Notes: generated by a model from the sequence alone, not told the origin. A DNA stretch of 64,000 bases from an uncultured bacterium (GCA_963826535.1 CAWGXL010000010.1:42814-106813); one strand, 5' to 3'. Positions 11,786 to 55,988 are shown, numbered from the stretch's first letter. Made by a program: numbers and translations.

Positions 11786-11888
11786 TGTCATTCCGAGCGA
11801 CCAAAGGGAGTCGAGGAATCTCATACCACCTTAGCTACTAATTGGGGTGAGATCCCTCCACTACGCTATCGCTTCGGTCGGGATGACA
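11786..11888 (+). mobile_element. MITE-like repeat, type 1, copy A (TIR TGTCATTCCGAGCG / CGGTCGGGATGACA)
   Basis: Near-identical to the reverse complement of 13837..13938, including the internal GAGTCGAGGAATCTCATACCAC...GGTGAGATCCCTCCACTACGC; fills the spacer between convergent genes. Confidence 0.75.
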
Positions 11889-11933
11889 AGATTTTACAAT
11901 CCAAGCAAGGAGGAATTAAGGTTTAGAAAAAGA

Positions 11934-12938
11934 TTAAAGCATCCTTATTTCCTCTTCTATAAAAGAATTTAAATCGCCATCCAGCACAGCAGCCGTATTA
12001 GATGTTTCATAGTTGGTTCTCAAATCCTTCACCATATGATAGGGATGTAGCACATAGGAGCGAATCTGATTTCCCCATCCCGGGGTTTTGTAAACACCTT
12101 TTAACTTAGCTTCTTGTGCCCTTCTTTTCTCGTCTTCGAGCAGCCATAGTTTAGCGCGAAGTATTTTCATTGCATACTCACGATTTTGCGCTTGATAACG
12201 TTGGGTTTGGGCCGTGACGATAATTCCGCTTGGTTTGTGTTTCAGTCGGACAGCAGTTGATACCTTATTTACATTTTGTCCTCCATGACCGCCGCTGCGA
12301 AAAGCTTCAAATTCTATATCATCATCGCGGATTTTCATAACCGCGTTTTGTTCAACATCCGGCAGTACTTCGACTAGCGCGAATGAAGTCTGACGTAATT
12401 TGTCGGCGTTGAATGGAGACTGCCGTACAAGACGATGCACTCCGGCTTCATGCTTGAGGTATCCAAACGCATAATTGCCTGTAATTTCAATAGTAATACT
12501 CTTGAGACCTGCTTCTTCTCCGGGTGTTTGCTCAATAACATTATGTTTCCAACCTTTTGTTTCAAAGTAGCGGGTATACATACGGAAAAGCATTTCCGCC
12601 CAGTCCATTGCCTCCACCCCTCCTTGCCCCGCATGAATTGATAGGATCACGTTTGATTTGTCATTAGCTGAAGAAAAATACAGAAGAGTTTCCATACTTT
12701 TCAATAATTTTTCCGCTTCTTTATATTCACCATCCTCTAACCATAATTGAAGTAGTTCGATTTCCTCAACTTCTTTTTGCAGAGCAGCCAACTCTTTCAT
12801 CTTTTTGGCCGCCTTTTGGGAATCATTCCAGAAACCGGGGTGCATACTTTCAGCTTCAAGCTCGCGGATTTTTTTGCGCTTTTCTTCTACCTGTACTTTT
12901 TCGATAAGTTTTTGAGCTCTATATTTTAAATCATCCAT
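11934..12938 (-). CDS. prfB: Peptide chain release factor 2
   Basis: GGQ motif ([10 protein letters not shown]) and RF2-type SPF tripeptide (RQSPFNA); a complete N-terminus in one frame, so no programmed +1 frameshift. Confidence 0.9.
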
Positions 12939-12998
12939 CGTAGGTTATATTCTAACCTAACAACGCATAAAACTCAAAACTTTAACAATGAATATTTC

Positions 12999-13256
12999 TT
13001 ATTTACCTGGCGTCTGAGGCGATTCAAAAATAACTATTGGTGGTGGCTTACCGCAATTTATATCTATTCTTAATGGGCCATCTGACTCCATAACAGGTCC
13101 TCTTGATTTCGATTTATCTTCTATTTTTGCTTTTTGTCGTGCAGGAGGTTCAGACTGACTAAGGACATATGCCTCCATACTCATCAAAGCAATAAAACCG
13201 ACAGTAGCACTTGTAACCATTTGTGCCCTAGATAACTCTTTTGATTCAGGTCTCAT
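12999..13256 (-). CDS. Hypothetical small protein
   Basis: 85-aa ORF; weak support. Confidence 0.3.
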   Translation of the reverse strand: MRPESKELSRAQMVTSATVGFIALMSMEAYVLSQSEPPARQKAKIEDKSKSRGPVMESDGPLRIDINCGKPPPIVIFESPQTPGK

Positions 13257-13465
13257 ATTTTCACCACCTTATAAATCCTGATAAGCCTACAATATAAACG
13301 TATTTTACCATAAAAATCCACTAATCTCAACTATAGGCTAAAGGATAAGTATAATTGGATGAGTATTCTGTTTTTCTCAGCTGGAAACATTTTGCAACTC
13401 TATGCAACAAGTAGTCCACTAATTAGCAACTGGACTCAAAACATTAAATAAAATTTGCAGGAAAA

Positions 13466-13810
13466 CTATTTTTTACCAAAATTTTCTACCTGACCTTTTA
13501 CATTTTCCTGGAGAGAGCGGAAATCATTAGCTATTTTTTGATATCCGTGGTAAATATTCACAAGATCTCCTATTTTTAAATTTAGCGCTTGCTTTTGTGC
13601 AAGAATTATACCGTTATCAATATCGGTTTTTAATTGACCTGAAATACTCCCAACATTATTCGTACTCAAACCTTTGACATCCGGAAGAGCCGGTTTAACA
13701 CCTTGAACTGAGGAGATAATTTTATCTCTAATGTCCGGCCTATTGAAAGTAAATACACCTCCGCCAATGATGATGAAAACAATACACAGCTTTATGAATT
13801 TGAGCAGCAT
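13466..13810 (-). CDS. Hypothetical N-terminally anchored small protein
   Basis: N-terminal TM segment (LCIVFIIIGGGVF). Confidence 0.4.
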   Translation of the reverse strand: MLLKFIKLCIVFIIIGGGVFTFNRPDIRDKIISSVQGVKPALPDVKGLSTNNVGSISGQLKTDIDNGIILAQKQALNLKIGDLVNIYHGYQKIANDFRSLQENVKGQVENFGKK

Positions 13811-13836
13811 GACATTTATTTTATCCTTCTCACAAA

Positions 13837-13938
13837 TGTCATCCCGACCGAAGCGAAGCGTAGTGGAGGGATCTCACACCAATGAGTTGCTTAAGTGGTA
13901 TGAGATTCCTCGACTTCCGTTGGTCGCTCGGAATGACA
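13837..13938 (-). mobile_element. MITE-like repeat, type 1, copy B (inverted relative to copy A)
   Basis: tgtcatcccgaccgaagcg...ggtatgagattcctcgact...gctcggaatgaca; the reverse complement matches copy A. Confidence 0.75.
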
Positions 13939-13955
13939 AAATTGCGTAACATTAG

Positions 13956-15821
13956 TTATTCTATCAGCTTTTTCACTTTCGCAACAATTTGTTTCGCGCT
14001 GATACCGGCGGCGTCTAAAAGTTCCTCAGATTTGCCCGATGAAGAAATTTTTGTCACAGCTATTTTTTCAACATGAGCGCCGGTGTTTGAAAGGCTAGAT
14101 AAAACGAAATCGCCCAAGCCTCCGTGCTCATAATGATCTTCAACGGTAATTACAGTTTTTTGTTTTGTTTCCCTCAGACTCTGCTTTAATGTTTTTGAAT
14201 CTATTGGTTTAATACAGTAGCAATCGATAACTCTGATATTTACCCCATCATTTTTAAGTGTGTCATAAGCCTTTAACGCTTCAAAAACGGTAATACCCGC
14301 AGCTACCACGGACAAAACGTCTTTTTGAGATTTTTTGAGAATTTTTGAACCCCCTATTGAAAAATTTTCATTTGTTTCATATAAAACAGGAGTCTTAGGA
14401 CGAAGAGTGCGTAGATAAGTAATTCCATCATAATTTGCGATCAGAGGTATAACTTTGGCCGTTGATACGGCATCTGACGGATGAAATATGATTGAGTCCG
14501 GAATCGCTCCAAAGATCGCAAAATCTTCAAGTGCCATTTGCGATGGCCCGTCTTCACCGATTGAGACACCAGCGTGAGAACCAATGAATTTTAAATTGGC
14601 GCGACCAATTGAGGCCATTCTGACTTGATCAACTGCGCGTGTTAGAAACGCGGCAAATGTAGAAACAAAAGGAATTTTCCCAAGGCGTTGTAAACCAACC
14701 GCGAGCCCAACCATATTCTGCTCGGCAATAAAACACTCAATAAAGCGGTCTGGTAGAACTTTCAAGAATTCCTGACTATAAGTGGAATTTTTTACTTCCG
14801 CATCAAGCGCGTATATATTCTTGTTTAATTCGCCTAATTTAGCTAACGCCTGTCCATAAACCTCCCGTGTCGCATGTTGCTGATCTTTTGAAAAATTAAT
14901 TTTTAAATTTTCGGGTGACTTTATTTTTTTTGTAAACTCCAATTTTTTGGGCTTTTTTAAACTGAACTTCAAATTATCATTAACTTTACCCAGCTCCATT
15001 AGCGCTTTGTCTAGCTCTTCTTTTTTTAGAGGCTTACCGTGCCAGCTATCTTTATTTTCTATAAAAGAAATGCCGCGGCCTTTGAAAGTCCTGGCAATTA
15101 TCACGAATGGCTTGCCTGTACCTGCCCGTCCGGCAGGCGGGTTATTTTTTACAGCCTGCGAGAACGCGCGGTCGACTTCGAATAAATTATTTCCGTCAAT
15201 AGCAATTGCTTCAAATCCAAAAGCTTTGAACCGGCTGATATATTCTTCCAAGTGGTGACCGAACATGGTCTCCTGGCTTTGACCGAGACGGTTAATATCT
15301 GCGATAGCAATGAGATTATCCAATTTATTCAAACTCGCAAAATTAGCGGATTCCCAAACCTGTCCTTCAGCTAATTCTCCATCACCTAAGAGTACGTATG
15401 TTTTATATGGTAAATTTTCCCGCTTAGCAAGTAAGCTTAAACCTGCTCCGATAGATAGGCCTTGTCCCAGTGAGCCGGTAGCAGCTTCCGCATATGGATA
15501 TTTCGCCGGAGTTGGATGCCCTTCAAGTCGGCTGCCAAATTTTCGGAGAGTTTTTAGTTCTTCAAGCGGATACGCCCCAGCCATAGCAAAAAGTGTATAT
15601 AAAAGTGGAGATGCATGGCCTTTTGAAAGTATAAACCTGTCGTTATAAAGATTAAGTGGATTTTTCAAGTCATAAGTAAAATATTTATCAAAAAGAACTG
15701 TACACAAATCTGCAGCAGATAAACAAGAAGTTGGATGACCTGAACCAGCCTCAGTAGTTGAAACCAAACACCATTTACGGACTAATTTAGCTTTTTCGAG
15801 TAATTCTTTTTGATTAAACAT
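13956..15821 (-). CDS. tkt: Transketolase
   Basis: N-terminal TPP-binding region (GSGHPTSCLSAADL, GHASP), 621 aa, with typical pyrimidine-binding and C-terminal domains. Confidence 0.9.
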   Translation of the reverse strand: MFNQKELLEKAKLVRKWCLVSTTEAGSGHPTSCLSAADLCTVLFDKYFTYDLKNPLNLYNDRFILSKGHASPLLYTLFAMAGAYPLEELKTLRKFGSRLEGHPTPAKYPYAEAATGSLGQGLSIGAGLSLLAKRENLPYKTYVLLGDGELAEGQVWESANFASLNKLDNLIAIADINRLGQSQETMFGHHLEEYISRFKAFGFEAIAIDGNNLFEVDRAFSQAVKNNPPAGRAGTGKPFVIIARTFKGRGISFIENKDSWHGKPLKKEELDKALMELGKVNDNLKFSLKKPKKLEFTKKIKSPENLKINFSKDQQHATREVYGQALAKLGELNKNIYALDAEVKNSTYSQEFLKVLPDRFIECFIAEQNMVGLAVGLQRLGKIPFVSTFAAFLTRAVDQVRMASIGRANLKFIGSHAGVSIGEDGPSQMALEDFAIFGAIPDSIIFHPSDAVSTAKVIPLIANYDGITYLRTLRPKTPVLYETNENFSIGGSKILKKSQKDVLSVVAAGITVFEALKAYDTLKNDGVNIRVIDCYCIKPIDSKTLKQSLRETKQKTVITVEDHYEHGGLGDFVLSSLSNTGAHVEKIAVTKISSSGKSEELLDAAGISAKQIVAKVKKLIE

Positions 15822-15873
15822 GAAGTATTGCCTGAACTTTACTATATTATCGAGAGTTAAGTCAAGTAGACCA

Positions 15874-16479
15874 TTATTTTAATTTATAAACTAACGCGGC
15901 CACAGCGGCACCCAGAAATGGACCTACCAGATAAATTATTAGGTTTGTAAGATTCGCATTTATTTGATTTGCATCCAGTAGAATTGGACCTATCGCAACA
16001 GCCGGATTAAATACACCGCCTGAGATAGGTCCGCCGGCAAAAGCTCCAACCATAAGAGCGAGCCCTATTGCCAGTCCAAAATAACTATTACCTTTAGTTT
16101 TTTCAGTCACGGCAACATGAAGTACTACGCTACACAAAAGAAAAGTAAATAATGCTTCAACAAGCATAGCCTGGGTCGGAGTTACATTTTGTGCAACCGC
16201 AGGGACGAAATAAATTCCTTTCAAAAATATAAAAACAATAGCCGCGACCAGCCCGCCTAGTAACTGAGCTACCATATACACAACTGCAGGTTTAGGTTTA
16301 ATATTTTTCGTGAGTAAGACCGCAAGCGTTACAGCCGGATTATAATGCCCGCCGGATATATAACCTCCCATATAAACCAGCGCAGCCAGCACAAAACCAA
16401 TTGCAATAGGATCGCCGGTAATAGCAATAGTCAATACCAAAAAGAACGCCCCTATAAATTCAATCAAATATTTTTTCAT
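15874..16479 (-). CDS. MIP-family channel (aquaporin/glycerol facilitator)
   Basis: Two NPA boxes (GGHYNPAVT, GGVFNPAVA) and six TM segments; the start is probably MKKYLIEF (16479) rather than the track start at 16515. Confidence 0.85.
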   Translation of the reverse strand: MKKYLIEFIGAFFLVLTIAITGDPIAIGFVLAALVYMGGYISGGHYNPAVTLAVLLTKNIKPKPAVVYMVAQLLGGLVAAIVFIFLKGIYFVPAVAQNVTPTQAMLVEALFTFLLCSVVLHVAVTEKTKGNSYFGLAIGLALMVGAFAGGPISGGVFNPAVAIGPILLDANQINANLTNLIIYLVGPFLGAAVAALVYKLK

Positions 16480-16570
16480 TAATTTATTATTACATGAAAT
16501 CAATAAAAAATACAACAGCCGAGTTTGGTTGACACTTTTTGAATTGGTATGTTAGCATGAAGTCTAGCTT

Positions 16571-16972
16571 ATGAAAACTATTGTGCGAGCAATTGCAATC
16601 TATACTCTTGCTTTATTTCTTCTGCCTCAACTTATTCCGGGAGTTCAAATTACAGGTGGATTTTTAACTCTCATAATAGGCGGCGCAGCTCTAGCACTCT
16701 TGTTTTTGATTTTAAAACCAATACTAAATATTATCAGTTTTCCCGTTAACTTGATCACTCTGGGGCTGTTCTCTATGTTTACGAATGTAATTATTCTTTA
16801 TCTTTTGACCGTGTTTGTAATTGGAATTTCCATCCACTCTTTTACTTATCCTAGTGTAGGAATTTTTGGGTTTATTATCCCACAGATCTCTTTTCCACTG
16901 TTATTTGCTTACATTTACACATCGTTTGTGCTATCATTCATTGATTCATTTTTCTCGTGGCTGGTGAAATAA
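16571..16972 (+). CDS. Hypothetical polytopic membrane protein
   Basis: About four hydrophobic segments in 133 aa. Confidence 0.45.
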   Translation: MKTIVRAIAIYTLALFLLPQLIPGVQITGGFLTLIIGGAALALLFLILKPILNIISFPVNLITLGLFSMFTNVIILYLLTVFVIGISIHSFTYPSVGIFGFIIPQISFPLLFAYIYTSFVLSFIDSFFSWLVK

Positions 16973-16978
16973 GTATTT

Positions 16979-17090
16979 TGTCATTCCCCTGGACAGGGGA
17001 ATCCAGAAGATATAAATAATTCTTCCTTATTAAGCAATAAGAGGAATAGACTTTTTTTACCTACTGGATTCCCGCGTTCGCGGGAATGAC
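16979..17090 (+). mobile_element. MITE-like repeat, type 3 (TGTCATTCCCCTGGACAGGGGAATCC ... GGATTCCCGCGTTCGCGGGAATGAC)
   Basis: Terminal hairpins share the TGTCATTCC/GGAATGAC ends with types 1 and 2; the track ORF 16981..17223(-) across it is spurious. Confidence 0.6.
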
Positions 17091-17128
17091 GATTATCAGT
17101 GTAACAGGAGTTAAGAAGAAATTTAAAT

Positions 17129-18194: not shown

Positions 18195-18259
18195 TCGTGA
18201 TCCCGATTTAATCGGGAGTGGAGATCAATAAAGATTGTTTCCCCCGCTGAGCGGGGTCG
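18195..18259. repeat. Partial MITE-like copy (right end ...GTCGCAATGACAT, CCCCGCTGAGCGGGG hairpin)
   Basis: Right TIR resembles type 2 (ctcgcaatgaca); the ccgctgagcgg hairpin also occurs at 39172 and 45468. Confidence 0.4.
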
Positions 18260-18350
18260 CAATGACATGTTTATGTTAGAAGTGAGAACAGTTACTCATT
18301 TGATAATTTTTGCAAAATGAGTGTGTAGTGGTATATAATATAGTCCTGTT

Positions 18351-19956: not shown

Positions 19957-21486
19957 TTAGAGAATACTGGATAGGGCGGATTTACTGCGGAGTTTCTTGT
20001 GGTAGGTTATGGCGAAGCGATGTGCTTCGTCCCGGATGCGCATAATTAAATGGAGAGAAGGGGAGCTTTTGGGAAGTGAAATTTCTTGATAATGCTCTCC
20101 CTCTTTTGTCATTGCGAGCGAACGAAGTGAGCGCGGCAATCCTGCCCGATTATTTGTCAATTTTTCTTTTAATAGAGATTGCTTCGTCTCCTCCATCCGG
20201 CGGATCCTCGCAATGACAGGAACTATTATTGTCTCTTCTCTCTTGGCCAATCCAATCAGGGGTATATTCATATTATTTTCTTGTAAAACTTTAAGCGCTG
20301 CTGATACCTGCCCCTTGCCCCCGTCAACGATTATTAAATCAGGCAAGTCCCATTCAGTATGTTTTAGTCTCCGCGTTATCACTTCTTGCATCATTGCAAA
20401 ATCATTTGGTTTGCCCGATATTCGAATTTTAAATTTACGATATTGCGAACCCTCTTTTTCACCGTTTATAAATACCACCATTGACCCCGTCGCATTTGTG
20501 CCTTGTGTATTGGAGATATCATAACACTCAATTCTGTTTAGTTTTTTCATATCCCCCCAACTCCAATCCCCCAAGCCCCCTTTATTAAAGGGGGTGTCCG
20601 AAGGACGGGGGATTTTTGCAGCATCCGGAAGCAAAGTTGATTCTTGAATATTCTGGGCAGTGGGAATTTTGTGAGTTTGATTCAATGCTTCCATCAACCC
20701 ATTTAATTCCTGTTGTCTTAGGTCCGCGCGGAGATTAGGATTTGTATCATATTCAAAAGGCGTGTGGATTGGTGTTGTTATTAAACCAAGTGCATCTATT
20801 TTTTTCTGGATTTTAAGCGCTTCTTCAAAGTTCTCGTACTTACTTAATTTATCACGCTCTTTTTCCAGCTCACCCATTATTTTTCGGGACTGACCTTCTA
20901 ATATACGAATAATATTGCGGATAGTCTTTTTATAATCTTTAGCCGCCTCCACCGAATCAAAAACCTGTGGACATGGACATAAACCCAGGTGATTATATAG
21001 GCAAATTCGCTTAGAGTGATTTAGAGCTGAAACATAAGGAAAAACACGTCGGATTGTTTTGAGCACCAACCGTACAGAAGAAGTACTTGGATATGGGCCA
21101 AAATAGATTGCCTTGCTATCTTGCTCTAGTCTAGCCAAAGTAATACTTGGATATTTATCTTTTATAGTAATCTTAATTCGGATATATGATTTGTTATCTC
21201 TTAAAGTTATATTATATTTTGGCTGGTATTTTTTAATATAATAGGCTTCGAGAAGTAAAGCTTCCAGCTCTGATTCAACGACGGTTATTTTTATCTTTTT
21301 TATTTGCGAAACAAGCACCCGGGTTTTGTCACCTAAATCTTTGTTAATATAATACGAAGAAACTCGCGCTTTCAGATCGTTGGCTTTTCCAACATAAAGT
21401 ACAATATTACCTGCGTCTAAAAATCTGTAGACGCCCGCTTTTGAGGGCAATGATGAGTATGATAATACAGAGTATACCAATTCCAA
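19957..21486 (-). CDS. uvrC: Excinuclease ABC subunit C, carrying two in-frame repeat insertions and lacking the C-terminal HhH region
   Basis: GIY-YIG domain (GVYRFLDAGNIVLYVGKANDLKARVSSY), UvrC core, EAHRFAI motif; the ORF ends about 20 aa after EAHRFAI; the start is probably downstream of the track TTG at 21486. Confidence 0.8.
   Translation of the reverse strand: MELVYSVLSYSSLPSKAGVYRFLDAGNIVLYVGKANDLKARVSSYYINKDLGDKTRVLVSQIKKIKITVVESELEALLLEAYYIKKYQPKYNITLRDNKSYIRIKITIKDKYPSITLARLEQDSKAIYFGPYPSTSSVRLVLKTIRRVFPYVSALNHSKRICLYNHLGLCPCPQVFDSVEAAKDYKKTIRNIIRILEGQSRKIMGELEKERDKLSKYENFEEALKIQKKIDALGLITTPIHTPFEYDTNPNLRADLRQQELNGLMEALNQTHKIPTAQNIQESTLLPDAAKIPRPSDTPFNKGGLGDWSWGDMKKLNRIECYDISNTQGTNATGSMVVFINGEKEGSQYRKFKIRISGKPNDFAMMQEVITRRLKHTEWDLPDLIIVDGGKGQVSAALKVLQENNMNIPLIGLAKREETIIVPVIARIRRMEETKQSLLKEKLTNNRAGLPRSLRSLAMTKEGEHYQEISLPKSSPSLHLIMRIRDEAHRFAITYHKKLRSKSALSSIL
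20107..20218 (+). mobile_element. MITE-like repeat, type 2 (TIR TGTCATTGCGAGCG.../...CTCGCAATGACA), inserted in-frame in uvrC
   Basis: The reverse complement translates without stops to PVIARIRRMEETKQSLLKEKLTNNRAGLPRSLRSLAMT, which is residues ~420-459 of the UvrC ORF, between the conserved GLAKREE and RDEAHRFA segments. Confidence 0.7.
20565..20615. repeat. Nested palindromic element, copy 2, in-frame in uvrC
   Basis: aatcccccaagCCCCCTTTATTAAAGGGGGtgtccgaaggacGGGGGATTT; read on the minus strand it encodes ...DTPFNKGGLGDWSWGD within UvrC. Confidence 0.7.
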
Positions 21487-23405: not shown

Positions 23406-26339
23406 CTATTTTAATACATTCTTGAGGAATTTGCCTGTCCAAGAGTTGGGGTTAGCAGCAATTTCTTCGGGTGTGCCGGTTGCTACAACTTGTCCTCCTT
23501 TTTCTCCTCCTTCAGGACCTAAGTCAATAATGTAATCGGCATTTTTTATTACATCTAAATTATGTTCAATAACAATGACCGAATTACCAAGACTTACTAA
23601 TCTTTGTAATACATATAATAATTTTTCCAGATCAGCAAAGTGCAAGCCTGTAGTTGGCTCATCCAATATATAAAGGGCATCCCCGCCTTTTTTCGAAAGT
23701 TCAGCAGCAAGTTTGACTCTCTGGGCTTCTCCCCCTGAAAGTGTTGGAGCGGCCTGACCCAACTTGATGTAGGATAGGCCCACATCATTAAGCGTTGCCA
23801 GCCTATGCGTTAGTCCGGGAATATGCGCGAAGAAATTTAAGGCTTGTGTTACGCTCATATCCAGTACATCGGCAATATTTTTATTATTAAATAATATCTC
23901 TAACGCTTCATTGTTATATCGTTTCCCCCGGCAAACTTCGCATGTTACATAAACGTCAGCAAGAAACTGCATTTCAATTTTTATTTGACCCTCTCCTTGG
24001 CATCCCTCACAACGGCCGCCTTTTACATTAAAGGAAAATCTACCCGGACCATAGCCACGCAGTTTTGCCTCTTTTGTAGCAGCAAAGAGACTACGGATAT
24101 AGGAAAAGGCACCGGTATATGTAACACAATTACTCCTTGGTGTCCGACCAATAGGCGATTGGTCGATAGCAAAGACATGCCTCACATTCTCATGTCCCTG
24201 AAGTCCAATAAATTTACCCGCCTTTTGCGGGTGGAACGAGTTTTTTAATTGCATTAAGGCATGGAAAAGAATATCGTTTACCAGAGTTGATTTTCCGCTG
24301 CCTGAGACGCCCGTTACTACGACTAATTTATTTAAAGGGAAATCAACAGTAATCTTTTTAAGATTATGCTCTGAAGCTCCAATTAGTTTTAGGAATTTAA
24401 ATCCCCCGTCCTGCGGGACACCCCCTTTATTAAAGGGGGTAAGGGGGATTTCTTTTGCTTCTGATTTATTTATTTGTATTTTCTTTCTTCCCGACAAATA
24501 AGCACCGGTAATAGAATTTTTATTTTTCTTAATTTCCGCAATAGTTCCCTGCGCAACGATTTTTCCTCCATCTTCACCCGCTCCGGGTCCGAAGTCAAAA
24601 ATATAATCTGATTCTTCCATGGTTTCCTGGTCATGTTCAACGACCAATATTGTGTTTCCCAGATCCCGAAGCTTTTTAAGCGTCAGAATTAATTTAGAAT
24701 TGTCCCGTTGATGCAATCCAATAGACGGCTCATCCAGAACATACAAAACTCCGGTTAATCCGCTACCTATTTGTGATGCAAGGCGAATTCTTTGTGCTTC
24801 ACCTCCGGCCAAAGAAGCGGCTCCGCGGGCTAAAGTCAAGTATTCAAGCCCGACATCTATTAGAAAGCTTAAACGCTGTCGTATCTCACGCAAAATCATT
24901 TTGCCTATATCCTGTTCTCTTTTTGAAAGCACTGCGTTTTCTAGGCTGTCGATAAATTTGAGCGCCTGATCAATAGGAAAATTTGCAACATCTACTATAG
25001 ATTTATCATATATAGTAACCGCCAGTGCCTCTTTTTTAAGTCGTGCCCCATTGCAGCGCGGACAAATATCAAAACGCATAAATTTATCGATTTGGGTTCT
25101 GATAAATTGCGAGTCGGATTCATTATAGCGATTCTTGAGCTCATGATTAATGCCGCGAAACGGCTCATAAATTTCAGTTGTGCGCCCCCAGCGGTTTTCT
25201 CCTTCAACCCGGTATTCTTTTTTTCCTGTTCCGTAAATCAACAAATCTTTTTTTTCTTTGGGTACATCACTTAATTTTGTACTAAGCGGGACATCGTTCT
25301 CCTTACAGAAAGTTTTAAAAGTACGCGAAAACCAAGTGTCGCTCTCTGTCAAATTAAAAAATGGCAAGACCCCACCTTCGTTAATTGTCATTTTGTTATT
25401 GAATACCAAATCCCTGTCAACATTTAGTACCCGGCCCAAGCCGGCGCAATCCGGACATGCTCCATGAGGTGTGTTAAACGAGAAAATTCTAGGTTCAATT
25501 TCCGGAAGGGAAATGTTGCAAACAGGACAGGCAAACTTTTCGGAGAATAGTTGGTCTTCCATTTCCTTAGGCTTTTCCGGTAAATTGAACGAAGAATCTT
25601 GTATTATAGAGACAATCATTTCACCATCGCCATACTGTAATGCCTGCTCAACATCGGTGACAATACGGATCCGGTCTGTATCTTTTGTAAGCACTAAGGA
25701 ATCAATAATTACTTCGATCGTGTGCTTGTTTGTTTTAATAAGCACAAGCTTTTCATCAAGAGTAAAGACCTCTCCATCTATTCTTACCTTGCGGTATCCG
25801 CGCTTTTTCAAACTATTAAATAATTCCGTATACTCACCTTTCCTGTCTTTGACCACTGCTGCCATAAGCATAATACGCAGGTCTGCCCGTCCGGGCATTT
25901 TATGTTTTTTTAACATGTCAAATATAGTATTGGCGATTTGTTCTTTAGACTGACGGGCTATCTCACGCCCGCAATTTGGACAATGCGGATGGCCAATGCG
26001 CGCGAAAAGCAAACGAAGATAGTCATAAATTTCCGTCACCGTACCGACAGTTGAACGGGGATTATGACTTGTTGATTTCTGATCAATGGATATAGCAGGA
26101 GACAAGCCTTCAATAAGATCAATATCCGGCTTTTTCATCGTCCCCAAAAATTGGCGCGCATAAGATGAAAGACTCTCCACATAACGGCGCTGCCCCTCCG
26201 CGTATATTGTGTCAAAAGCAAGTGAAGATTTCCCGCTCCCGGAAAGCCCGGTCAAAATAACCAGCTTATTTTTAGGAATCTCCATGTCAATATTTTTGAG
26301 ATTATGTTCCCGAGCGCCTTTGATAACGAGTTTATCCAT
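23406..26339 (-). CDS. uvrA: Excinuclease ABC subunit A, with an in-frame palindromic-element insertion
   Basis: Two ABC ATPase modules ([23 protein letters not shown]; [13 protein letters not shown]) and zinc-finger CxxC pairs; 977 aa. Confidence 0.9.
24399..24452. repeat. Nested palindromic element, copy 3, in-frame in uvrA
   Basis: AAATCCCCCgtcctgcgggacaCCCCCTTTATTAAAGGGGGtaaGGGGGATTTc; encodes [16 protein letters not shown] in UvrA, in the linker before the second ABC module. Confidence 0.7.
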
Positions 26340-35972: not shown

Positions 35973-36035
35973 GATCGTAATAATTGCAGTCTTTCATAGT
36001 GAAAGGCTGAGGCAAGTATAAGGCACATTTCGTGA

Positions 36036-36082
36036 TTTGTCAAGAACAAAACAGTAGAACAAGAAATTCTGTTCTTGACAAA
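36036..36082. promoter_or_regulatory. Palindromic operator overlapping divergent sigma70-type promoters (TTGACA-17-TATAAT toward lexA-like; TTGACA-17-TATACT toward the minus-strand operon)
   Basis: TTTGTCAAGAACA-aaacagtagaacaagaaat-TGTTCTTGACAAA; the right arm contains TTGACA (36075-36080), 17 bp before TATAAT (36098-36103) and ATG 36116; the left arm (rc) gives TTGACA, with TATACT (rc of 36015-36020) 17 bp away toward the gene at 35972. Confidence 0.6.
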
Positions 36083-36115
36083 CATCAAGTCCTGCCCTAT
36101 AATATAACTTATAGT

Positions 36116-36736
36116 ATGCAACCCTTACATCCTGTCCAAAAAAAGCTTTTGGAAGTTCTAAAAGCAAACATGGACGACCCTCTTACAATAAGACAACTTA
36201 TGAAATTGGCAAGTGCTTCCTCTCCGAGCGTAATTCATCACCATATTACCCAATTAGAAAAAAAAGGACTTTTAAGGAGAAATCCCTCTAACCCATCTGA
36301 CTATCAGGTTCTTATGGGAGAGCCAGAAAAAGAGATTGCTTTTTTAAACCTTTATGGTCTTGCTCAATGCGGTCCAAAAGGGTCAATTTTAGACGGTAAC
36401 CCAGTAGACAGAATAAGAATATCGTCTAAATTCCTAGGCTTTTCTGCTCTTGATGCGTTTGCTGTAAAAGCAAAAGGCACATCAATGTTACCTAAAATAA
36501 AGCCTGGCGACTTGGTAATCGCTAAAAGGTCAAACACATTTAATAATGGAGATGTTGTTATTTGTGTAAATAATGGTGAGGCATTGATAAAAAAAGTACA
36601 GATAATCACTAAAGATGATGAACATATTGCTTATAACCTTATTTCGGTTAATTCACAAAATTACCCTCCTTTTTTAGCAGGTGAAGATTTTAGAGTAGAA
36701 GGTATTGTGCGAGGAGTTTTGACTTATTCGGTATAA
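36116..36736 (+). CDS. lexA: LexA-like repressor (winged-helix DNA-binding domain + S24 peptidase)
   Basis: N-terminal LexA DNA-binding-like region (LTIRQLMKLASASSPSVIHHHITQLEKKGLLRR); C-terminal S24 Ser/Lys dyad context (AKGTSMLPKIKPGDLV...ALIKKV); true start MQPLHPV at 36116 (the track start 36032 lies in the operator). Confidence 0.75.
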   Translation: MQPLHPVQKKLLEVLKANMDDPLTIRQLMKLASASSPSVIHHHITQLEKKGLLRRNPSNPSDYQVLMGEPEKEIAFLNLYGLAQCGPKGSILDGNPVDRIRISSKFLGFSALDAFAVKAKGTSMLPKIKPGDLVIAKRSNTFNNGDVVICVNNGEALIKKVQIITKDDEHIAYNLISVNSQNYPPFLAGEDFRVEGIVRGVLTYSV

Positions 36737-36835: not shown

Positions 36836-37114
36836 TTATTCTCTATTTTTTTCTCCATTAAAATATTCTCTAAGCATTAATCTTAGAGTTGTTTTGCCTT
36901 TGGTTGTTTTAAAATAATCCTCTCTCCGTTTAGCATCCTTTATTTTCCTGTATGCCTCATAATGGATTAACTCAAGTGGAAGATAGGCTTTTGTAGATGT
37001 GACTGCACCATTATTGTGAGATATCACTCGTGCTTTTAAATCTTCAGAGTAGCCGGCATACACGAATTTTTTCAACGAATTATGGAGAATATAGACGTAA
37101 TAAAACTTCATGGT
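36836..37114 (-). CDS. GIY-YIG nuclease-family protein (UPF0213/YhbQ-like)
   Basis: FYYVYILHNSLKKFVYAGYSEDLKARVISHN: GIY-YIG motif; start at MKFYYVYIL. Confidence 0.65.
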   Translation of the reverse strand, partial: TMKFYYVYILHNSLKKFVYAGYSEDLKARVISHNNGAVTSTKAYLPLELIHYEAYRKIKDAKRREDYFKTTKGKTTLRLMLREYFNGEKNRE

Positions 37115-37249
37115 TGTAGACGTACTAGTCACTATCGTTCCAGTACATCTCTGCCTCACCACTCATTTGCTTTATAGTTAAACTCTAATCCTTTGCCTAA
37201 TTAATTTAAGGGCGAAGCGATGAACCCAAACGAAGTGAGTGGTTCGTTG

Positions 37250-37321
37250 CAGGGACGCACGGATTCGAACCGTGAAAAGCAGTTTTGGAGACTGCTGTGA
37301 TAACCGTTTCACCACGTCCCT
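37250..37321 (-). tRNA. tRNA-Trp (CCA)
   Basis: Cloverleaf on the reverse complement: acceptor AGGGACG/CGTCCCT, D-stem GTGA/TCAC, anticodon stem GCAGT/ACTGC with loop CTCCAAA, T-stem CACGG/CCGTG; no encoded 3'-CCA. Confidence 0.8.
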
Positions 37322-37393
37322 AAGTTAGCAAATAGTAAATAGCATATAGAATATGGTTTTATTTACCATTCGCCATAAGCTATTCGCCATTTA

Positions 37394-37573
37394 CTATTTA
37401 AGCTTGTCCGTCTCTTTATGGTCTGTTTTTTTACGGCAGTGCCTGCAATATTTTTTTAATAATAACTTTTCCGGTGTTTCCAGTTTATTTTTTTGAGTTA
37501 TATAATTCCTATTTTTACAAACAGAACAGACAAGACCTATTTTTATTCTATGTTCACCTTTTTTTGGCATACT
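37394..37573 (-). CDS. rpmG: 50S ribosomal protein L33
   Basis: MPKKGEHRIKIGLVCSVCKNRNYITQKNKLETPEKLLLKKYCRHCRKKTDHKETDKLK: L33 CxxC...CxxC zinc ribbon; the track ORF is over-extended upstream into the tRNA; RBS AGGAGG before the ATG. Confidence 0.85.
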   Translation of the reverse strand, partial: SMPKKGEHRIKIGLVCSVCKNRNYITQKNKLETPEKLLLKKYCRHCRKKTDHKETDKLK

Positions 37574-37609
37574 CCTCCTTTCAATATATATTATCTTTTT
37601 ACATATTTG

Positions 37610-37681
37610 AGCCGAAGGCGGGAATCGGACCCGCGACCTAGTTCTTACCAAGAACTCGCTCTACCACTGAGCCACTTCGGC
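37610..37681 (-). tRNA. tRNA-Thr (GGT)
   Basis: Acceptor GCCGAAG/CTTCGGC, D-arm GCTC-AGTGGTA-GAGC, anticodon loop TTGGTAA, T-arm GCGGG-TCCGATT-CCCGC. Confidence 0.8.
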
Positions 37682-37702
37682 TTTTGCCGCAAAGCGGCTT
37701 TG

Positions 37703-37786
37703 TGCTGAGGGAGGGAATTGCACCCCCGGAGTCCGAACGGACGCGTGGTCTACAGCCACGTGCAATTGCTACTCTGCCACCTCAGC
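37703..37786 (-). tRNA. tRNA-Tyr (GTA) with long variable arm
   Basis: Acceptor GCTGAGG/CCTCAGC, anticodon stem CGTGG/CCACG with loop CTGTAGA, 16-nt variable arm, T-arm GGGGG-TGCAATT-CCCTC (unusual T-loop). Confidence 0.7.
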
Positions 37787-37861
37787 GCATTTAGCTAGTT
37801 GCTATTAGCTGTCAGCTCTCTGACAACAAAAAATCTGAAAGCAGAAAGTTAACAGCAGATA

Positions 37862-37933
37862 GCAAATATTGAGCCGACAGAGGGATTTGAACCCCCGACC
37901 CATGCTTTACAAAAGCATTGCTCTACCACTGAG
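37862..37933 (-). tRNA. tRNA-Thr (TGT)
   Basis: Acceptor GCCGACA/TGTCGGC, anticodon stem ATGCT/AGCAT with loop TTTGTAA, T-arm GGGGG-TTCAAAT-CCCTC. Confidence 0.8.
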
Positions 37934-38025
37934 CTATGTCGGCGATTTTGCAATGCAAAACCTAGAACCTGACGATTCAGAAAATACAAGCATAATTTTA
38001 GCAGACATAGGGGGGCTTCAGCAAC

Positions 38026-38971
38026 CTGTCGGATTATTCTCCGTAGAAATCCGACAGTAAGCGGCAGAGAAAAGATATACTATGAATATGCAACAAATAA
38101 CGAAAGTTTCTCTCGCCTGGGAATTGTTTGAACAAGGGATGCCAAAGACTCATATTGCCAAGCAGCTTGGCATTCATCGGGAAACTGTTCATTTATGGAT
38201 CTGTGGTATTCTCAATAATCCACAAGGGCTTATGGGATTCCTAGACTACTATCTTGTGGCTAAGAAAGGAGACCGTCCTAAACGGCAAGTGAATGCAATT
38301 CTAAAAAGGTGGGTCTGGCAGATTAGAGAGCGTGAGATGGATTGTTGCGGAGATAAAATACAATACTTTCTCAAAAAAGAACACGCCGTTTCTATCTCAA
38401 TTCCTAAGATTTATGAGATATTAAAAGAGAAGTACGTTCTTCGGAAGAGACGAGGCAATAACATAAAACGTGGGCCGGTACCAAAAGCGGTAAAACCTCG
38501 GGAAGTAATTCAAATGGATACAATTGACTTTGGAGAACTCTTTGCCTTTACAGCAGTTGATATCTTTTCCAGAGAAGCAGATGTTGTCCTTCGCCCATCC
38601 CTAACCAGTAATGATGGTGTTATTTTCCTGGATACCTGTATGAGAAGACGCTTCAATGGGCATAGCGATTTAATACAGGCAGATGGCGGGCCGGAGTTTA
38701 AAGACAAATTTGCAGAAAAAGTCTATACTTACACAGATAGATTTCGTATTTCAAGACCTTACAAGAAAAATGAACAATCTTTCATTGAAAGCTTTAACAA
38801 AACAGTAAGAAAAGAATGCCTGGGGTGGAACAAGTATAGAAAATCAGAACTTTTAGAAGCAAAAAGCCTTATTGAAGCATTTCTTCAAAGATATCATTAT
38901 CATAGACCGCATATTAGTTTAGGAATGAAACCGCCGCTTACCAGCTAAACTAAAGTGTCGGATATTTACGG
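38026..38971 (+). mobile_element. IS481-like insertion sequence (single transposase ORF; imperfect terminal inverted repeats CCGTAGAAATCCGACAG / GTGTCGGATATTTACGG)
   Basis: Left-end hairpin ctgtcggatt-attctccgtagaa-aatccgacag (38026-38057); right end gtgtcggatatttacgg (38955-38971) is the imperfect reverse complement of the left inner arm; inserted ~90 bp from tRNA-Thr. Confidence 0.55.
38082..38948 (+). CDS. Transposase, DDE integrase core (rve), IS481-like
   Basis: N-terminal HTH (THIAKQLGIHRETVHLWI); rve core with QMDT...D...ESFNKTVRKE catalytic pattern; 288 aa. Confidence 0.75.
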   Translation: MNMQQITKVSLAWELFEQGMPKTHIAKQLGIHRETVHLWICGILNNPQGLMGFLDYYLVAKKGDRPKRQVNAILKRWVWQIREREMDCCGDKIQYFLKKEHAVSISIPKIYEILKEKYVLRKRRGNNIKRGPVPKAVKPREVIQMDTIDFGELFAFTAVDIFSREADVVLRPSLTSNDGVIFLDTCMRRRFNGHSDLIQADGGPEFKDKFAEKVYTYTDRFRISRPYKKNEQSFIESFNKTVRKECLGWNKYRKSELLEAKSLIEAFLQRYHYHRPHISLGMKPPLTS

Positions 38972-45449: not shown

Positions 45450-45559
45450 TGTCATTCCGAGCGGACCCCGCTCAGCGGGGGGAGTCGAGGAATCTCATGT
45501 CACTGATTTACAAGAGAAATAAAGTGGTATGGGATCCCTCCACTTCGGTCGGGATGACA
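45450..45559 (+). mobile_element. MITE-like repeat, type 1, copy C
   Basis: tgtcattccgagcggaccccgctcagcggggggagtcgaggaatctcat...gggatccctccacttcggtcgggatgaca. Confidence 0.7.
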
Positions 45560-50328: not shown

Positions 50329-50469
50329 TAGAACAAACTATAACAATACTAGCTTCACTCCGCCCGTCACTGTTTACGGTATTGTCACACATTGTCTGAC
50401 TAAGCATTGAAAACGATTTACTCTGATTTGAAATTATAATATTTATTTGCTTTATGTTAAAATAATGCA

Positions 50470-52122: not shown

Positions 52123-52124
52123 AA

Positions 52125-53633
52125 ATGAAGAGAATAATACCCTCCACCATGGCATCTCAACACCCCGATCATGCGAACATTCCCTACTGGCACAACAAAG
52201 AATTCATCACCGCCCAACACGAACACAAAGAATGTTACCTCATGTATTCAGATTTGGGAATCCAGGAATACAAATGGGATTGGGAAGGAAAAATTGTAGA
52301 TGAATCCATTATGGAAAGATTACTAAGTCTTTATTATGATTATTTTAGAGCTAATCCGCTTGGAAAAGAAAAATTTCTCACTTTTAGATTGCCTAATCCT
52401 AAAGCTGAGACAGAATTCCGCCTGGCTCGGGCTTTCATGGGAATTCTAAGCGCTGCGTCCTTGACCAAGCAAGTCGGCTTGCACACTCCACCCCTATTTG
52501 AAGTAATTCTGCCCATGACCGAAAGCGCCGCTGAAATGATTGCGATCCAAGAGGCATTCCAGGAAATCACACAGCTAAAACACGAACTTTACCGCTTTGA
52601 AACCAATACATTAAAAAACATAGAAGTAATTCCACTCTTCGAACAAGTGTCAACCATAATTAACTCCGATCAAATACTTAAAGACTATGTAGCTATGCAT
52701 ATCCAAAAATTCAAAAAAGTACCTGCATATTTACGGCCATACGTTGCCCGTTCTGACCCGACATTAAATTCGAGCTTAGTTCCCACAGTCCTCGCGATAA
52801 AAATAGCATTATCGCGCTACAAACTATTTACCCAAGAGTCAGGAATCCCGCTATACCCAATCATTGGCTCAGCCTCACTTCCATTTCGCGGAGGACTGAC
52901 TCCGCATACTGTTAATCAATTTATTAAAGAATATCAAGGCATAAAAACCGCCTTAATTCAAAGCGCGTTCCGTTATGATTACGACAAATTAGATGTTAAG
53001 AAGGCAATAAAAACTCTAAATAATTCACTCCCGGCTGGCCTTGCTGCCGAGATAACAACGAAGGAAGAAAAAGACCTGATATCGATTATTTCTTTCTTTG
53101 AACTTCCATATAAAAAAGTTATTGAAGAAATAGCCCCCATAATCAATAAAATCGCATCATCGCTTCCCCCAAGGCGAGAAAGAGTCCAGCACACCGGCTT
53201 ATTTGGTTATTCCAGAGGCATGGGGAAAGTAACACTCCCGCGGGCGATCTCGTTTACAGGATCCCTATATTCAATCGGCATCCCTCCGGAGTTAATCGGT
53301 ACCGGACACGGAATTAAAAAAACTATAGAGGCAGGCAAAATAGATCTCTTGGAAAAATTCTATATTAATTTAAAACAAGATCTAATCACCTCAGGTAAGT
53401 TCCTCAACAAAAAATTACTAAAAACACTCGCTATTCAATATCCTATATTTAAAGATGTCATTGATGACATAAAATATATAGAAGAGTACCTCGGAACCGA
53501 ATTAGGCCCGGAAAGCCCCGAAGAAAAAGAACATTCCAAACTCACGGAAAAAATATATAAAGGCTTCACACAAGACAATATCCCCCAAGATATTCTAACC
53601 CGCGCAGCAGTTCTCCGAAAAAGCATGGGTTAG
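52125..53633 (+). CDS. ppcA: Archaeal-type phosphoenolpyruvate carboxylase (PpcA family)
   Basis: N-terminal IPSTMASQHPDHANIPYWH matches the archaeal-type PEPC start (IP..MSTQHPDN) and the ~500-aa length. Confidence 0.6.
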   Translation: MKRIIPSTMASQHPDHANIPYWHNKEFITAQHEHKECYLMYSDLGIQEYKWDWEGKIVDESIMERLLSLYYDYFRANPLGKEKFLTFRLPNPKAETEFRLARAFMGILSAASLTKQVGLHTPPLFEVILPMTESAAEMIAIQEAFQEITQLKHELYRFETNTLKNIEVIPLFEQVSTIINSDQILKDYVAMHIQKFKKVPAYLRPYVARSDPTLNSSLVPTVLAIKIALSRYKLFTQESGIPLYPIIGSASLPFRGGLTPHTVNQFIKEYQGIKTALIQSAFRYDYDKLDVKKAIKTLNNSLPAGLAAEITTKEEKDLISIISFFELPYKKVIEEIAPIINKIASSLPPRRERVQHTGLFGYSRGMGKVTLPRAISFTGSLYSIGIPPELIGTGHGIKKTIEAGKIDLLEKFYINLKQDLITSGKFLNKKLLKTLAIQYPIFKDVIDDIKYIEEYLGTELGPESPEEKEHSKLTEKIYKGFTQDNIPQDILTRAAVLRKSMG

Positions 53634-53692
53634 AAATATCCAGAAATTTCTTACCCTTATAGAGTCTCAATATTGCTTGCTAAGAGTAGGGT

Positions 53693-53959
53693 GTGTATAA
53701 TAACACTATGATTAAACGTAAGGTTCTGCAATATACAGTTTTTTATACACCTGAACCAGAGGGAGGATTTACAGTTACTGTTCCATTCCTCCCCGGGTGT
53801 GTTACTTATGGGAAAAACTTGCAGGATGCAAAAAAAATGGCTGAAGATGCAATTCAACTTTATGTTAAAAGTTTACAAAAACACAATGAGCCAATTCCCA
53901 CAGAAGAAAATTCCTTCATCAGCTCTGTGAATTTGGAGACCCCTGCAACGCATGCCTAA
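53693..53959 (+). CDS. hicB: HicB-family antitoxin (UPF0150)
   Basis: YTVFYTPEPEGGFTVTVPFLPGCVTYGKNLQDAKKMAEDAIQLY: classic HicB/UPF0150 N-terminal domain. Confidence 0.7.
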   Translation: MYNNTMIKRKVLQYTVFYTPEPEGGFTVTVPFLPGCVTYGKNLQDAKKMAEDAIQLYVKSLQKHNEPIPTEENSFISSVNLETPATHA

Positions 53960-54167
53960 AACATACAAACCAAAAGAAGTTTTGAGGAAGTATAAAAAGC
54001 TCGGGTTCGAGGAGGATAGACAAAGCGGAAGCCATAAAATTTTGTATCATCCAACTACTAAGAAAAGGGCGGTTATTCCACATCATCTAAAAGAAATTGC
54101 CAAAGGAACATTGTCTGCAATTCTACGTGAATCGCAGGTTTCAAGAGAAGAATTCGAAAATGCGTGA
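53952..54167 (+). CDS. hicA: HicA-family toxin
   Basis: LRKYKKLGFEEDRQSGSHKILYHP: HicA signature; overlaps hicB by 8 nt. Confidence 0.7.
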   Translation: MPKTYKPKEVLRKYKKLGFEEDRQSGSHKILYHPTTKKRAVIPHHLKEIAKGTLSAILRESQVSREEFENA

Positions 54168-54192
54168 GGTAATCTAATGTTCTTATAAATAA

Positions 54193-55491
54193 TTAGACAC
54201 TTGTTTTTGAACTAAAAGGCTTTTTTCCGGCAAAACTCGCTTTGTCTCCCAATAGTTCCTCTATCCGAAGCAGCTCATTGTATTTACAATTTCTCTCTGA
54301 TCGCGAAAGTGAACCTGTTTTAATTTGTCCTGACGACAATCCGACAGCTAAATGAGCAATAGTCGTATCCTCAGTTTCGCCGGAGCGGTGGGAAATTACA
54401 GTATTCCAGCCAAATCTTTGCGCCATTTCGCAAGCCTTCATAGTCTCCGTCAAAGTGCCAATTTGATTCGGCTTGATAAGAATTGCGTTTGCAGCTTTTA
54501 GCCCGATGGCTTTATCTAAAAATTTAATATTAGTCACCAACAAATCATCCCCGACAATCTGTTTTTCTTTTCCTAATTTTGCAGTCAACAATTCCCAACC
54601 CTTCCAGTCGTTCTGATCAAGAGGATCTTCAAGCGAAAGAATCGGAAATTTCTGTGTTAATTGAATTATCCAATCAACCATTTCTTCAGACGTAAGTTTT
54701 TTTCCGTCTTTTTTTAGAATATAATGTGTTCCGTCAAAAAATTCAGACGCAGCGGCATCAATCCCCAGAACAATATCTTTCCCCAATGAATATCCGGCTT
54801 TTTCAACTCCCTGCGCAATTAATTCAAATGCTTCTAAATTACCTCCTTTTACCTTTGGAGCAAACCCACCTTCATCTCCCACAGTTGTCTCATACCCTTT
54901 TTCATTAATAATTTTTCCTAGAAAATGAAAAACTTCCGCGCCCATTCGCACAGCATCAGAGAATGAGCTAGCACCTACCGGAAGTATCATATACTCCTGA
55001 ATATCTGTCGAAAAATTAGCATGTTTTCCCCCATTTATAATATTCATCATAGGAAGTGGAAGTATATAAGAAGATTTTTCATTTATCCCGGCTATATAGT
55101 CAAAAAGAGGTTTACCCATAACATTTGCACTTGCTTTAGCGACTGCAAGCGACACAGACAGGATAGCATTCGCGCCCAATTTTCCCTTATTTTCCGTACC
55201 ATCCAAATCAATCATTGCCTGATCTATCTTCTCTTGATCCTGTGCATCCAAACCAACCACTGCTTTGGTAATCGGGGCATTAACATTATCAACTGCCTTC
55301 ATAACACCCTGGCCGAGATATTTTTTCGGATCACCATCTCGCAGCTCAACTGCCTCATTTACTCCTGTAGATGCTCCTGATGGGACAGCAGCTCGCCCAA
55401 TAACACCATTCTCAAGCTCCACATCGCATTCAACCGTAGGATTCCCCCGTGAATCCAGTATCTGTCTCGCATGTATTTTTTTTATTATCAT
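54193..55491 (-). CDS. eno: Enolase
   Basis: [21 protein letters not shown]...; 432 aa; catalytic-loop motifs SHRSGETED and KxNQIGT. Confidence 0.9.
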
Positions 55492-55778
55492 AAAAAGGAA
55501 AAGATAATTACAATTATTAATATAAAAATAAGTATATTAGAAATGCCTGCAAATAACCCAAAGTTGGACAATAGCCATATAACAAGGAGGATGATCGCCA
55601 AAGTACGAAAAATTCCGGGAAGAAAACCAATTACCCACACAATAAGTATTAAGATAAGGAGATTATATAAAGTAAACGGATGATTTAATATTGAAAAAAG
55701 CGAATAATTCAAAAACGGAATTTGAATAAAACCCAATAACCAAAAAATTATAAAGAGTACCAGGATCAACTGAACCAT
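55488..55778 (-). CDS. Hypothetical small membrane protein
   Basis: 96 aa, three hydrophobic segments; overlaps eno by 4 nt. Confidence 0.35.
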
Positions 55779-55854
55779 ATTATATATTTATTGTGGCAAC
55801 TTTTCATAAAAAAATCAAATCGCTCTGATAAAATAATACATGTTACGAAATACT

Positions 55855-55988
55855 TGTCATTCCGAGCGGAGCGATAGCGGAGTCGAGGCGACTCCACGAA
55901 GTGGATAGTGCCCTTGTGGTGAATCTCATACCACTGATATTTAAACATAAGATCCCTCCACTCGTCTGCGGACTCGGTCGGGATGACA
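55855..55988 (+). mobile_element. MITE-like repeat, type 1, copy D (longer variant)
   Basis: tgtcattccgagcggagcgatagcggagtcgaggcgactccacgaagtgg...gaatctcataccactg...gatccctccactcgtctgcggactcggtcgggatgaca. Confidence 0.7.

Follow-up and report, generated by a model that had tools for sequence, protein, structure and literature searches.

Repeats in which a short tag stands beside a small palindrome were grouped in 2013 as the CGTC-tagged REP superfamily, which includes Neisseria dRS3 and Rickettsia RPE-4 and RPE-6 (Di Nocera, De Gregorio, and Rocco, BMC Genomics 2013, PMC3733652). As defined there, each repeat has an unpaired CGTC tag (often TGTC or CCTC), an 8–9 bp stem starting with AT, a 4–5 nt loop, and a CCA tail. 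Most form head-to-head dimers with the tags outside and spacers of 20–100 bp, and they lie near the 3′ ends of open reading frames (ORFs); copies also occur within uvr, rec, and polymerase genes, and neither a tyrosine transposase nor any other was found associated with them. They were reported from five phyla, mostly from alpha-proteobacteria (PMC3733652). Here, we analyzed a 64,000-nt stretch of DNA from an uncultured bacterium (GCA_963826535.1, CAWGXL010000010.1:42814-106813; hereafter the window), in which seven palindromic elements of 70–135 bp are found. We put at roughly 80% the probability that these elements are head-to-head pairs of tagged hairpin units belonging to the CGTC/TGTC-tagged REP superfamily, equivalent to the NTS and Ssn-related motifs described below.

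A nuclease partner for such repeats was described by Chenal et al. (Nat Commun 2025, PMC11893778). The NTS sequence (CGTCATTCCCGCGMAVGCGGGAATCYRG), a longer form of dRS3, is bound and cut only when single-stranded, and on one strand. The enzyme, SsnA, is a 94-aa single-domain GIY-YIG protein that binds the DNA form of the sequence and not RNA. Three bases 5′ of the palindrome govern its cleavage and the C on the 3′ side matters most for binding, while the identity of the loop is not required and its extension does not prevent cleavage. Genes of the ssn type typically lie between Ssn-related motifs (SRMs) in the order SRM-ssn-SRM, the published motif pattern being HGTCWYN(0-2)YYVSBRHN(0-5)WNVSBRGN(0-2)RNCYNB. 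In N. meningitidis, the Ssn system reduces the integration of transforming DNA that carries the repeats, and homologues, whose family in CDD is cd10448, were reported mainly in Pseudomonadati (PMC11893778). The kind of element seen in the window is therefore already known, tagged REPs having been described since 2013 and their nuclease partner since 2025.

The initial annotation of the window had reported a real family of short, palindromic, non-coding repeats, and this was borne out: all of the listed copies are present, at or within 1–2 nt of the earlier coordinates, and far above shuffled sequence. Allowing up to two mismatches, TGTCATTSCGAGCG matched 11 times in the window against 0.49 expected from shuffles, and none of 100 shuffles reached 11. 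A unit definition combining tag, stem, and C recovered 10 genuine units, plus two matches that apparently arose by chance (shuffles, 0.43). Every element (7/7) consists of two inverted copies of one unit with the tags pointing outward. Read from the outside in, the unit comprises a [C/T]GTC tag, a basal stem (AT-Y-S-C ... G-S-R-AT), and a C followed by two further tail bases. The tag is TGTC in 11 units and CGTC in one, and in all intact units of the window the stem is immediately preceded by GTC and immediately followed by C. In type 3 units the stem runs uninterrupted for 8 bp and closes on a 4-nt loop, and both such units have a CCA tail. Units of types 1 and 2 have a basal stem of only 5 bp, followed by GA in most units, a variable and often G+C-rich insert (10–45 nt), a purine-rich step, and then the closing half; their tails are CTC, CCT, or CCC.

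Several details of the earlier description were revised on closer comparison. The type 3 copy had been placed at 16979–17090 with TGTC ends; it is present, its end is at 17091, and its right tag is CGTC. What had been taken for a fragment at 18195–18259 is indeed a repeat, though a complete and decayed dimer: its left unit has lost the tag (cGTG ATCCC GA..GGAGAT C), and its right unit, on the minus strand, reads TGTC ATTGC GA CCCCGC TCA GCGGGG GAA ACAAT C and has a single mismatch in its closing stem. The copy at 55855–55988 carries a long insert in its left unit, whose closing half is degenerate (GTGAATC). The pair GAGTCGAGGAATCTCATACC / GGTATGAGATTCCTCGACT, formerly read as an internal hairpin, proved to be one segment seen in two oppositely oriented copies, those at 11786 and 13837, which are 92% identical over 83 nt. 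The features are collected in Table 1.

Table 1. Tagged-hairpin elements of the window and the genes listed with them (positions counted from the first nucleotide of the window)
Feature	Position	Strand	Sequence or setting	Basis
Type 1 head-to-head dimer	11786..11888	both strands		end-motif matches, folding
Left unit of the 11786 copy	11786-11822	+	TGTC ATTCC GAGCG..GTCGA GGAAT CTC	
Right unit of the 11786 copy	11849-11888	-	TGTC ATCCC GACCG..GTGGA GGGAT CTC	
Type 1 dimer, orientation opposite to 11786-11888	13837..13938		downstream of transketolase gene 13956-15821 (-)	
Type 3 dimer of canonical CGTC-1/NTS-type units	16979..17091			unit-pattern matches, unit folds
Left unit of the type 3 dimer	16979-17006	+	TGTC ATTCCCCT GGAC AGGGGAAT CCAG	
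Right unit of the type 3 dimer	17064-17091	-	CGTCATTCCCGCGAACGCGGGAATCCAG = CGTC ATTCCCGC GAAC GCGGGAAT CCAG	
Short decayed dimer	18196..18267	both strands		end-motif matches, folding
Type 2 dimer	20107..20218		TGTC ATTGC GAG.. in both arms; in frame inside uvrC	
Type 1 dimer	45450..45559	both strands	additional CCCCGCTCAGCGGGG hairpin in loop of left unit	
Type 1 dimer, 134 bp	55855..55988		between divergently oriented genes	
uvrC, host gene of the type 2 copy	19957..21486	-		GIY-YIG and UvrC RNase H-like domains
Small single-domain GIY-YIG gene of 91 aa, the only one in the window	36836..37111	-		GIY-YIG search

Five of the copies lie directly 3′ of stop codons, in agreement with the earlier statement that copies sit near them, and one lies between divergent genes. 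The 11786–11888 copy is placed between two convergent stop codons, those of an ORF at 10735–11757 (+) and of the release-factor gene at 11934–12938 (-), and the 45450–45559 copy is flanked by a 187-aa ORF and a fused acetyl-CoA carboxylase gene. The earlier phrase that the family "fills intergenic spacers" holds for most copies and fails for the type 2 copy, which is in frame within uvrC. As a separate observation, the most similar pair of copies (92%, inverted) brackets a 2-kb segment, 11786–13938, containing the release-factor gene and two small ORFs. This order of repeat, gene, and repeat recalls the NTS-gene-NTS arrangement that has been discussed in Neisseria.

Set against the published definitions, type 3 is a plain member of the superfamily. 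The unit at 17064–17091 (-) agrees with the N. meningitidis NTS consensus at 28 of 28 positions and also fits the SRM pattern (shuffle mean, 0.06). The stem and loop of the CGTC REP definition are found in the two type 3 units only, whereas the unpaired tag, the short 3′ tail (of different sequence in types 1 and 2), and the outward dimers are found in the window. Likenesses to CGTC REPs extend to the unpaired CGTC/TGTC tag, the AT-starting stem, the 3-nt tail (CCA in type 3), head-to-head dimers with 20–100 bp spacers at ORF 3′ ends, the lack of a linked transposase, and in-frame copies in DNA-repair genes such as the uvr genes; unlike CGTC REPs, types 1 and 2 have another stem, loop, and tail (not CCA), and termini of the present kind occur in about 20 phyla, counting the matches listed, and on viral contigs. 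On the sequence features available, types 1 and 2 are best described as a variant that resembles a member yet lies outside two published definitions, those of stem and loop size and of the SRM pattern. Full-text literature searches with the terminal sequences returned unrelated primers only and no description of types 1 and 2 by sequence.

To place the elements among other genomes, relatives were sought with the pattern TGTCATTSCGAGCG-N70-100-TCGSRATGACA, for which our own arithmetic gives a chance expectation well under one match in the collection. The pattern matched at least 120 genome stretches and 18 viral (IMG/VR) contigs. About 20 phyla are represented among the matches listed, including Chloroflexota, Bacteroidota (many of them Mucilaginibacter), Bacillota (Oscillospiraceae), Acidobacteriota, Planctomycetota, Verrucomicrobiota, Nitrospirota, Cyanobacteriota (Nostoc), Gemmatimonadota, Desulfobacterota, Omnitrophota, Spirochaetota, Calditrichota, KSB1, Actinomycetota, Pseudomonadota, and Patescibacteria. 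The plasmid collection gave one weak match only, an unannotated one in Novosphingobium. The best named relatives of the window's own proteins are in Levybacteria and Patescibacteria, and from the names on these homologues the host looks like a candidate-phyla-radiation (Patescibacteria-like) genome.

We then examined which genes accompany the units. Neighbor analyses covered 138 related loci with all-against-all ORF clustering, in which the only large cluster comprised ABC ATPases. A profile and motif search for small GIY-YIG genes in all ORFs of these loci and of the window found four, three in related loci (L054, L093, and L129, too few to rank by clustering) and one in the window. The three genes in related loci stand 14–94 bp from unit heads, with elements on both sides. 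When an alignment of their proteins was used as a query, 80 metagenomic homologues were obtained, of which 76 have a tagged hairpin within 300 bp of the gene and 53 have units on both sides. Unit density around the 80 genes is 7.8 per kb within 150 bp and 0.2–0.4 per kb beyond 1 kb. The commonest layout, seen in 26 of these 53 loci, places the gene between outward-tagged units; the window's dimers show this layout without the gene. The SRM-ssn-SRM arrangement is thus found in related loci (L054, L093, L129, and, as hairpins near the gene, 76/80 homologues) and not within the window. Units beside the GIY-YIG genes include type 2-like (TGTCATTGCGAG...GAAGCAATC), type 1-like (TGTCATTCCGAG...CGAGGAATC and TGTCATCCCGAG...GAGGGATC), and NTS-like (TGTCATTCCTGCGAAGGCAGGAATC) forms, and these too keep GTC 5′ and C 3′ of the palindrome. 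The flanked proteins were assigned to Pfam PF01541, their only PDB relatives being weak UPF0213 matches, and an NCBIfam search with them gave nothing specific. The likeness to the NTS/SRM-Ssn pairing covers the GTC tag 5′ of an AT-initiated palindrome, the C on its 3′ side, repeats on both sides of small GIY-YIG genes, free loop content in keeping with the published tolerance of the nuclease, a mostly though not solely intergenic placement, and occurrence in many phyla.

Structure was addressed by folding and by covariation. Each unit folds with its basal stem formed and its tag and tail unpaired, and whole elements fold as long imperfect hairpins (z of -2.6 to -5.3). Isolated type 3 units are more stable than shuffles (z of -1.9 and -3.1). 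For covariation, we assembled 139 distinct elements from other genomes of many phyla, selected by their outer 14 and 11 nt only, and scored basal-stem pairing on the halves that had no part in the selection. The S positions of the inner and outer halves of the left arm can pair in 126 of 127 cases, and for the Y/R position of the right arm the count is 112 of 116. The right arm is often ATCSC/GSGAT while the left arm stays ATTSC/GSAAT, so the compensating changes are confined to single arms rather than spanning the element. As the conserved structure, two local hairpins are thereby favored over one long hairpin.

Strong covariation of the stem is also what would be expected of a structured RNA, such as a terminator, an mRNA stabilizer, or a small RNA acting after transcription, of which the DNA repeats would merely be the genes. 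The initial annotation had named covariation of this kind as the mark of an RNA family rather than of mobile DNA; the covariation is there, and it fits the single-stranded DNA hairpin of a partner nuclease rather than an Rfam-type family. The position of most copies directly 3′ of stop codons would suit an RNA element, as would the argument that many REPs are transcribed (PMC3733652). Against it, Rfam 15 gave no match at the gathering threshold save tRNAs in the window and 18 related loci, E-value searches returned only generic hairpin (miRNA-precursor) models far below threshold, and neither a terminator-like call nor a T-run was found at any copy. The copies point either way and include one between divergent genes and one within coding sequence, every dimer has one unit on each strand, and SsnA binds the DNA form and not RNA (PMC11893778). 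We consider an RNA element improbable as the primary explanation, while secondary effects of the elements on flanking transcripts may occur.

Classical miniature inverted-repeat transposable elements (MITEs) of the DDE type, such as Correia and Nezha, share with the window elements their size, palindromic ends, non-coding content, and a longer gene-carrying form. On such an account, the copies would be deletion derivatives of a DDE insertion sequence whose transposase, supplied in trans, recognizes terminal inverted repeats beginning TGTCATT. The TG...CA inverted ends, the length of 100–135 bp, the mostly intergenic placement, the variable presence among relatives, and an rve-type (IS481-like) transposase gene in the window (38082–38948) speak for it. 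No target-site duplication of 4 nt or more was found at any of the seven copies, however, the only candidate being AAA, 3 nt long and set in AT-rich sequence, at a single copy. No transposase recurs beside the termini in the 138 related loci, the earlier annotation having identified no cognate one in the window, and the gene that does occur between such ends encodes a GIY-YIG nuclease. The shared 8–9 nt ends, previously interpreted as transposase-type inverted repeats, are the tag and basal stem of an autonomous hairpin unit that also occurs singly, as half-units in arrays, in tandem arrays, and beside GIY-YIG genes, and they are conserved across about 20 phyla among the matches listed, unlike the ends of insertion sequences. 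The description of the elements as non-autonomous was fair, since their end architecture matches that of the gene-carrying form, but a classical MITE is not supported, and we judge it very unlikely.

Mobilization as a REP/REPIN by RAYT, a Y1 HUH transposase of the IS200/IS605 superfamily, is just as unlikely: REPIN/BIME-RAYT systems agree with the window in their tetranucleotide tags, hairpins, and 20–100 bp spacers, in an inverted pairing of tagged hairpins whose working form would be single-stranded DNA, and in a single-copy partner gene between repeats, but their tag is GTAG (as a pattern, GT[AG]G) and not CGTC/TGTC, their enzyme is HUH-Y1 rather than of GIY-YIG fold and chemistry, no tyrosine transposase was found beside CGTC repeats (PMC3733652), and no Y1-type neighbor recurs in the 138 loci, where the flanked gene is GIY-YIG.

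Several results weigh against assigning the window elements to the tagged-REP superfamily. No type 1 or 2 unit in the window fits the SRM pattern, to which 17064–17091 is the sole match, and the printed pattern matches no unit beside any of the 80 metagenomic GIY-YIG genes. Types 1 and 2 also depart from the 8–9 bp stem and 4–5 nt loop, having five pairs and then 12–30 nt before the closing half. Isolated units of these types do not exceed shuffles in stability (z about 0), and the minimum-energy fold of the whole dimer is a single long hairpin, so the case for local hairpins rests on the covariation. There is, further, no unit-flanked ssn-type gene within the 64 kb, and the small GIY-YIG gene of the window stands 8.3 kb from the nearest unit in a different conserved context. 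The corresponding differences from the NTS/SRM-Ssn pairing are the 5-bp stem, the usual GA step, and the variable insert of window types 1 and 2, their position outside the SRM pattern, a window that has no cognate gene, and a candidate-phyla-radiation host as opposed to mainly Pseudomonadati. The count of 0/80 implies that the type 1/2 architecture lies outside the published search definition while keeping the positions that matter.

The presence of copies also differs between related genomes. The 45450 copy is absent from two relatives whose carboxylase is about 78–79% identical, where the spacers measure 40 and 48 nt against 139 nt in the window; the 139-nt spacer contains the 110-bp element, and the relatives' spacers are too diverged to show exact insertion boundaries. 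One of these two relatives has a unit elsewhere. Together, the empty sites and the differently placed unit indicate that copies vary between lineages.

Two other arrangements were observed among the related loci. At L038 1–720 (Desulfobacteraceae) and L114 4740–5650, element and spacer are repeated in tandem, with periods of 170 and 154 bp. Runs of duplicated half-termini flank full elements and GIY-YIG genes in L093 (1–180 and 640–880), L043, L053, L100, L104, L127, L005, L018, L056, L059, and L076; examples are TTTGTCATTGCGAGCGCAGCG three times over and ..CTCGCAATGACA every 22–24 nt. Such runs may have been left by successive rounds of cutting and repair.

The type 2 copy forms an in-frame insert of 37 aa in the RNase H-like endonuclease domain of UvrC, its minus strand encoding VIARIRRMEETKQSLLKEKLTNNRAGLPRSLRSLAMT. 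At this point the window UvrC has 45 residues where Thermotoga UvrC has 3. Among 68 homologues of this bacterial group (within P0179-P0297), the length of this loop, which follows ...LAKREETIIVP, varies between 6 and 65 residues, and in at least 8 of the 68 it starts with unit-encoded peptides such as VIARSEATKQSL, VIAR.., VIASEAKQS, and the NTS-like VIPAKVGIQ. This suggests that the loop may be an insertion hot spot. A second palindromic family of about 50 nt (AATCCCCC..CCCCCTTTATTAAAGGGGG..GGGGGATTT) was also observed, with copies at ~536–586, just upstream of an ORF starting at 630; at 20565–20615, in frame in uvrC and encoding ..PFNKGGLG..; and at 24399–24450, inside the uvrA ORF (23406–26339). 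With the type 2 element, this makes three palindromic inserts in two excision-repair genes.

Reading the elements as tagged REP dimers, we can postulate how they would work by analogy with the characterized system. A single-stranded unit would fold so that AT-Y-S-C pairs with G-S-R-AT to form the basal stem, leaving the 5′ tag and the 3′ C and tail unpaired, with the variable upper part tolerated. The unit would be bound on one strand by a single-domain GIY-YIG nuclease (Ssn) of ~95 aa, with the tag, basal stem, and 3′ C as the features recognized, and the single strand would be cut a few nucleotides 5′ of the tag. Because its two units lie on opposite strands, a dimer would offer one site per strand. 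The unit-ssn-unit arrangement with outward tags would be the gene-carrying form, to which the 70–135 bp dimers would relate as a MITE does to an insertion sequence. We infer that types 1 and 2 would be substrates of such a nuclease, that its cognate gene lies, or formerly lay, elsewhere in this genome, and that the spread of the repeats depends on it. A bolder proposal, which we regard as possible but doubtful, is that unit-ssn-unit constitutes an autonomous mobile class undemonstrated in bacteria, with a GIY-YIG mobilizer of ~95 aa and the dimers as its non-autonomous derivatives, spread over ~20 phyla and phages and hitting one candidate-phyla-radiation uvrC loop repeatedly, and that the unit with a 5-bp stem, GA step, and variable insert is a distinct substrate class missed by the SRM pattern.

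The small GIY-YIG gene of the window was considered as a candidate for the cognate nuclease and set aside. Its product is 31% identical to a unit-flanked GIY-YIG protein; its relatives adjoin tRNA genes and have another conserved leader and no TGTC units, and the gene is probably not the cognate enzyme. It lies directly downstream of a tRNA gene (36836–37250, minus strand), with a ~140-nt leader kept in Levybacteria-like relatives. The leader, seen in the window, at L141 7700–8274, and in L143-L145, consists of AACGAACCACTCACTTCGTT.GGGTTCATCGCTTCGC followed by a hairpin, GAGATGTACTGGAA..ACTAGTACGTC, of which L143 has two copies; the leader has no second occurrence in the window. Many homologues of the gene, 70–78% identical, come from very short contigs, a pattern that points to a multicopy or mobile unit of another kind. 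Nearby, four minus-strand tRNA genes (37250–37943) adjoin the rve-type transposase gene, and a LexA-like repressor gene is found at 36032–36736. Elsewhere in the window, 6152–9827 holds a tandem series of four to five paralogous genes, each coding for about 300 aa, with a period of about 920 bp and 68–80% DNA identity between copies.

Taken as tagged REP dimers, the elements would explain a very common "junk" repeat that lies behind spurious peptides (VIARSEATKQSL, ...SLRSLAMT) in metagenome annotations, and they link this common repeat with a family of nucleases first described in 2025. The pairing of tagged hairpins with Ssn appears to reach a Patescibacteria-like genome and also units built in a way that escapes the published pattern, and present counts of such repeats are therefore probably too low. 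The inserts in uvrC and uvrA provide a clean case for the old puzzle of repeats that reside in excision-repair genes. Finally, natural variants that combine a GTC tag, a 5-bp stem, and a free loop could guide the engineering of site-specific single-strand DNA cutters.

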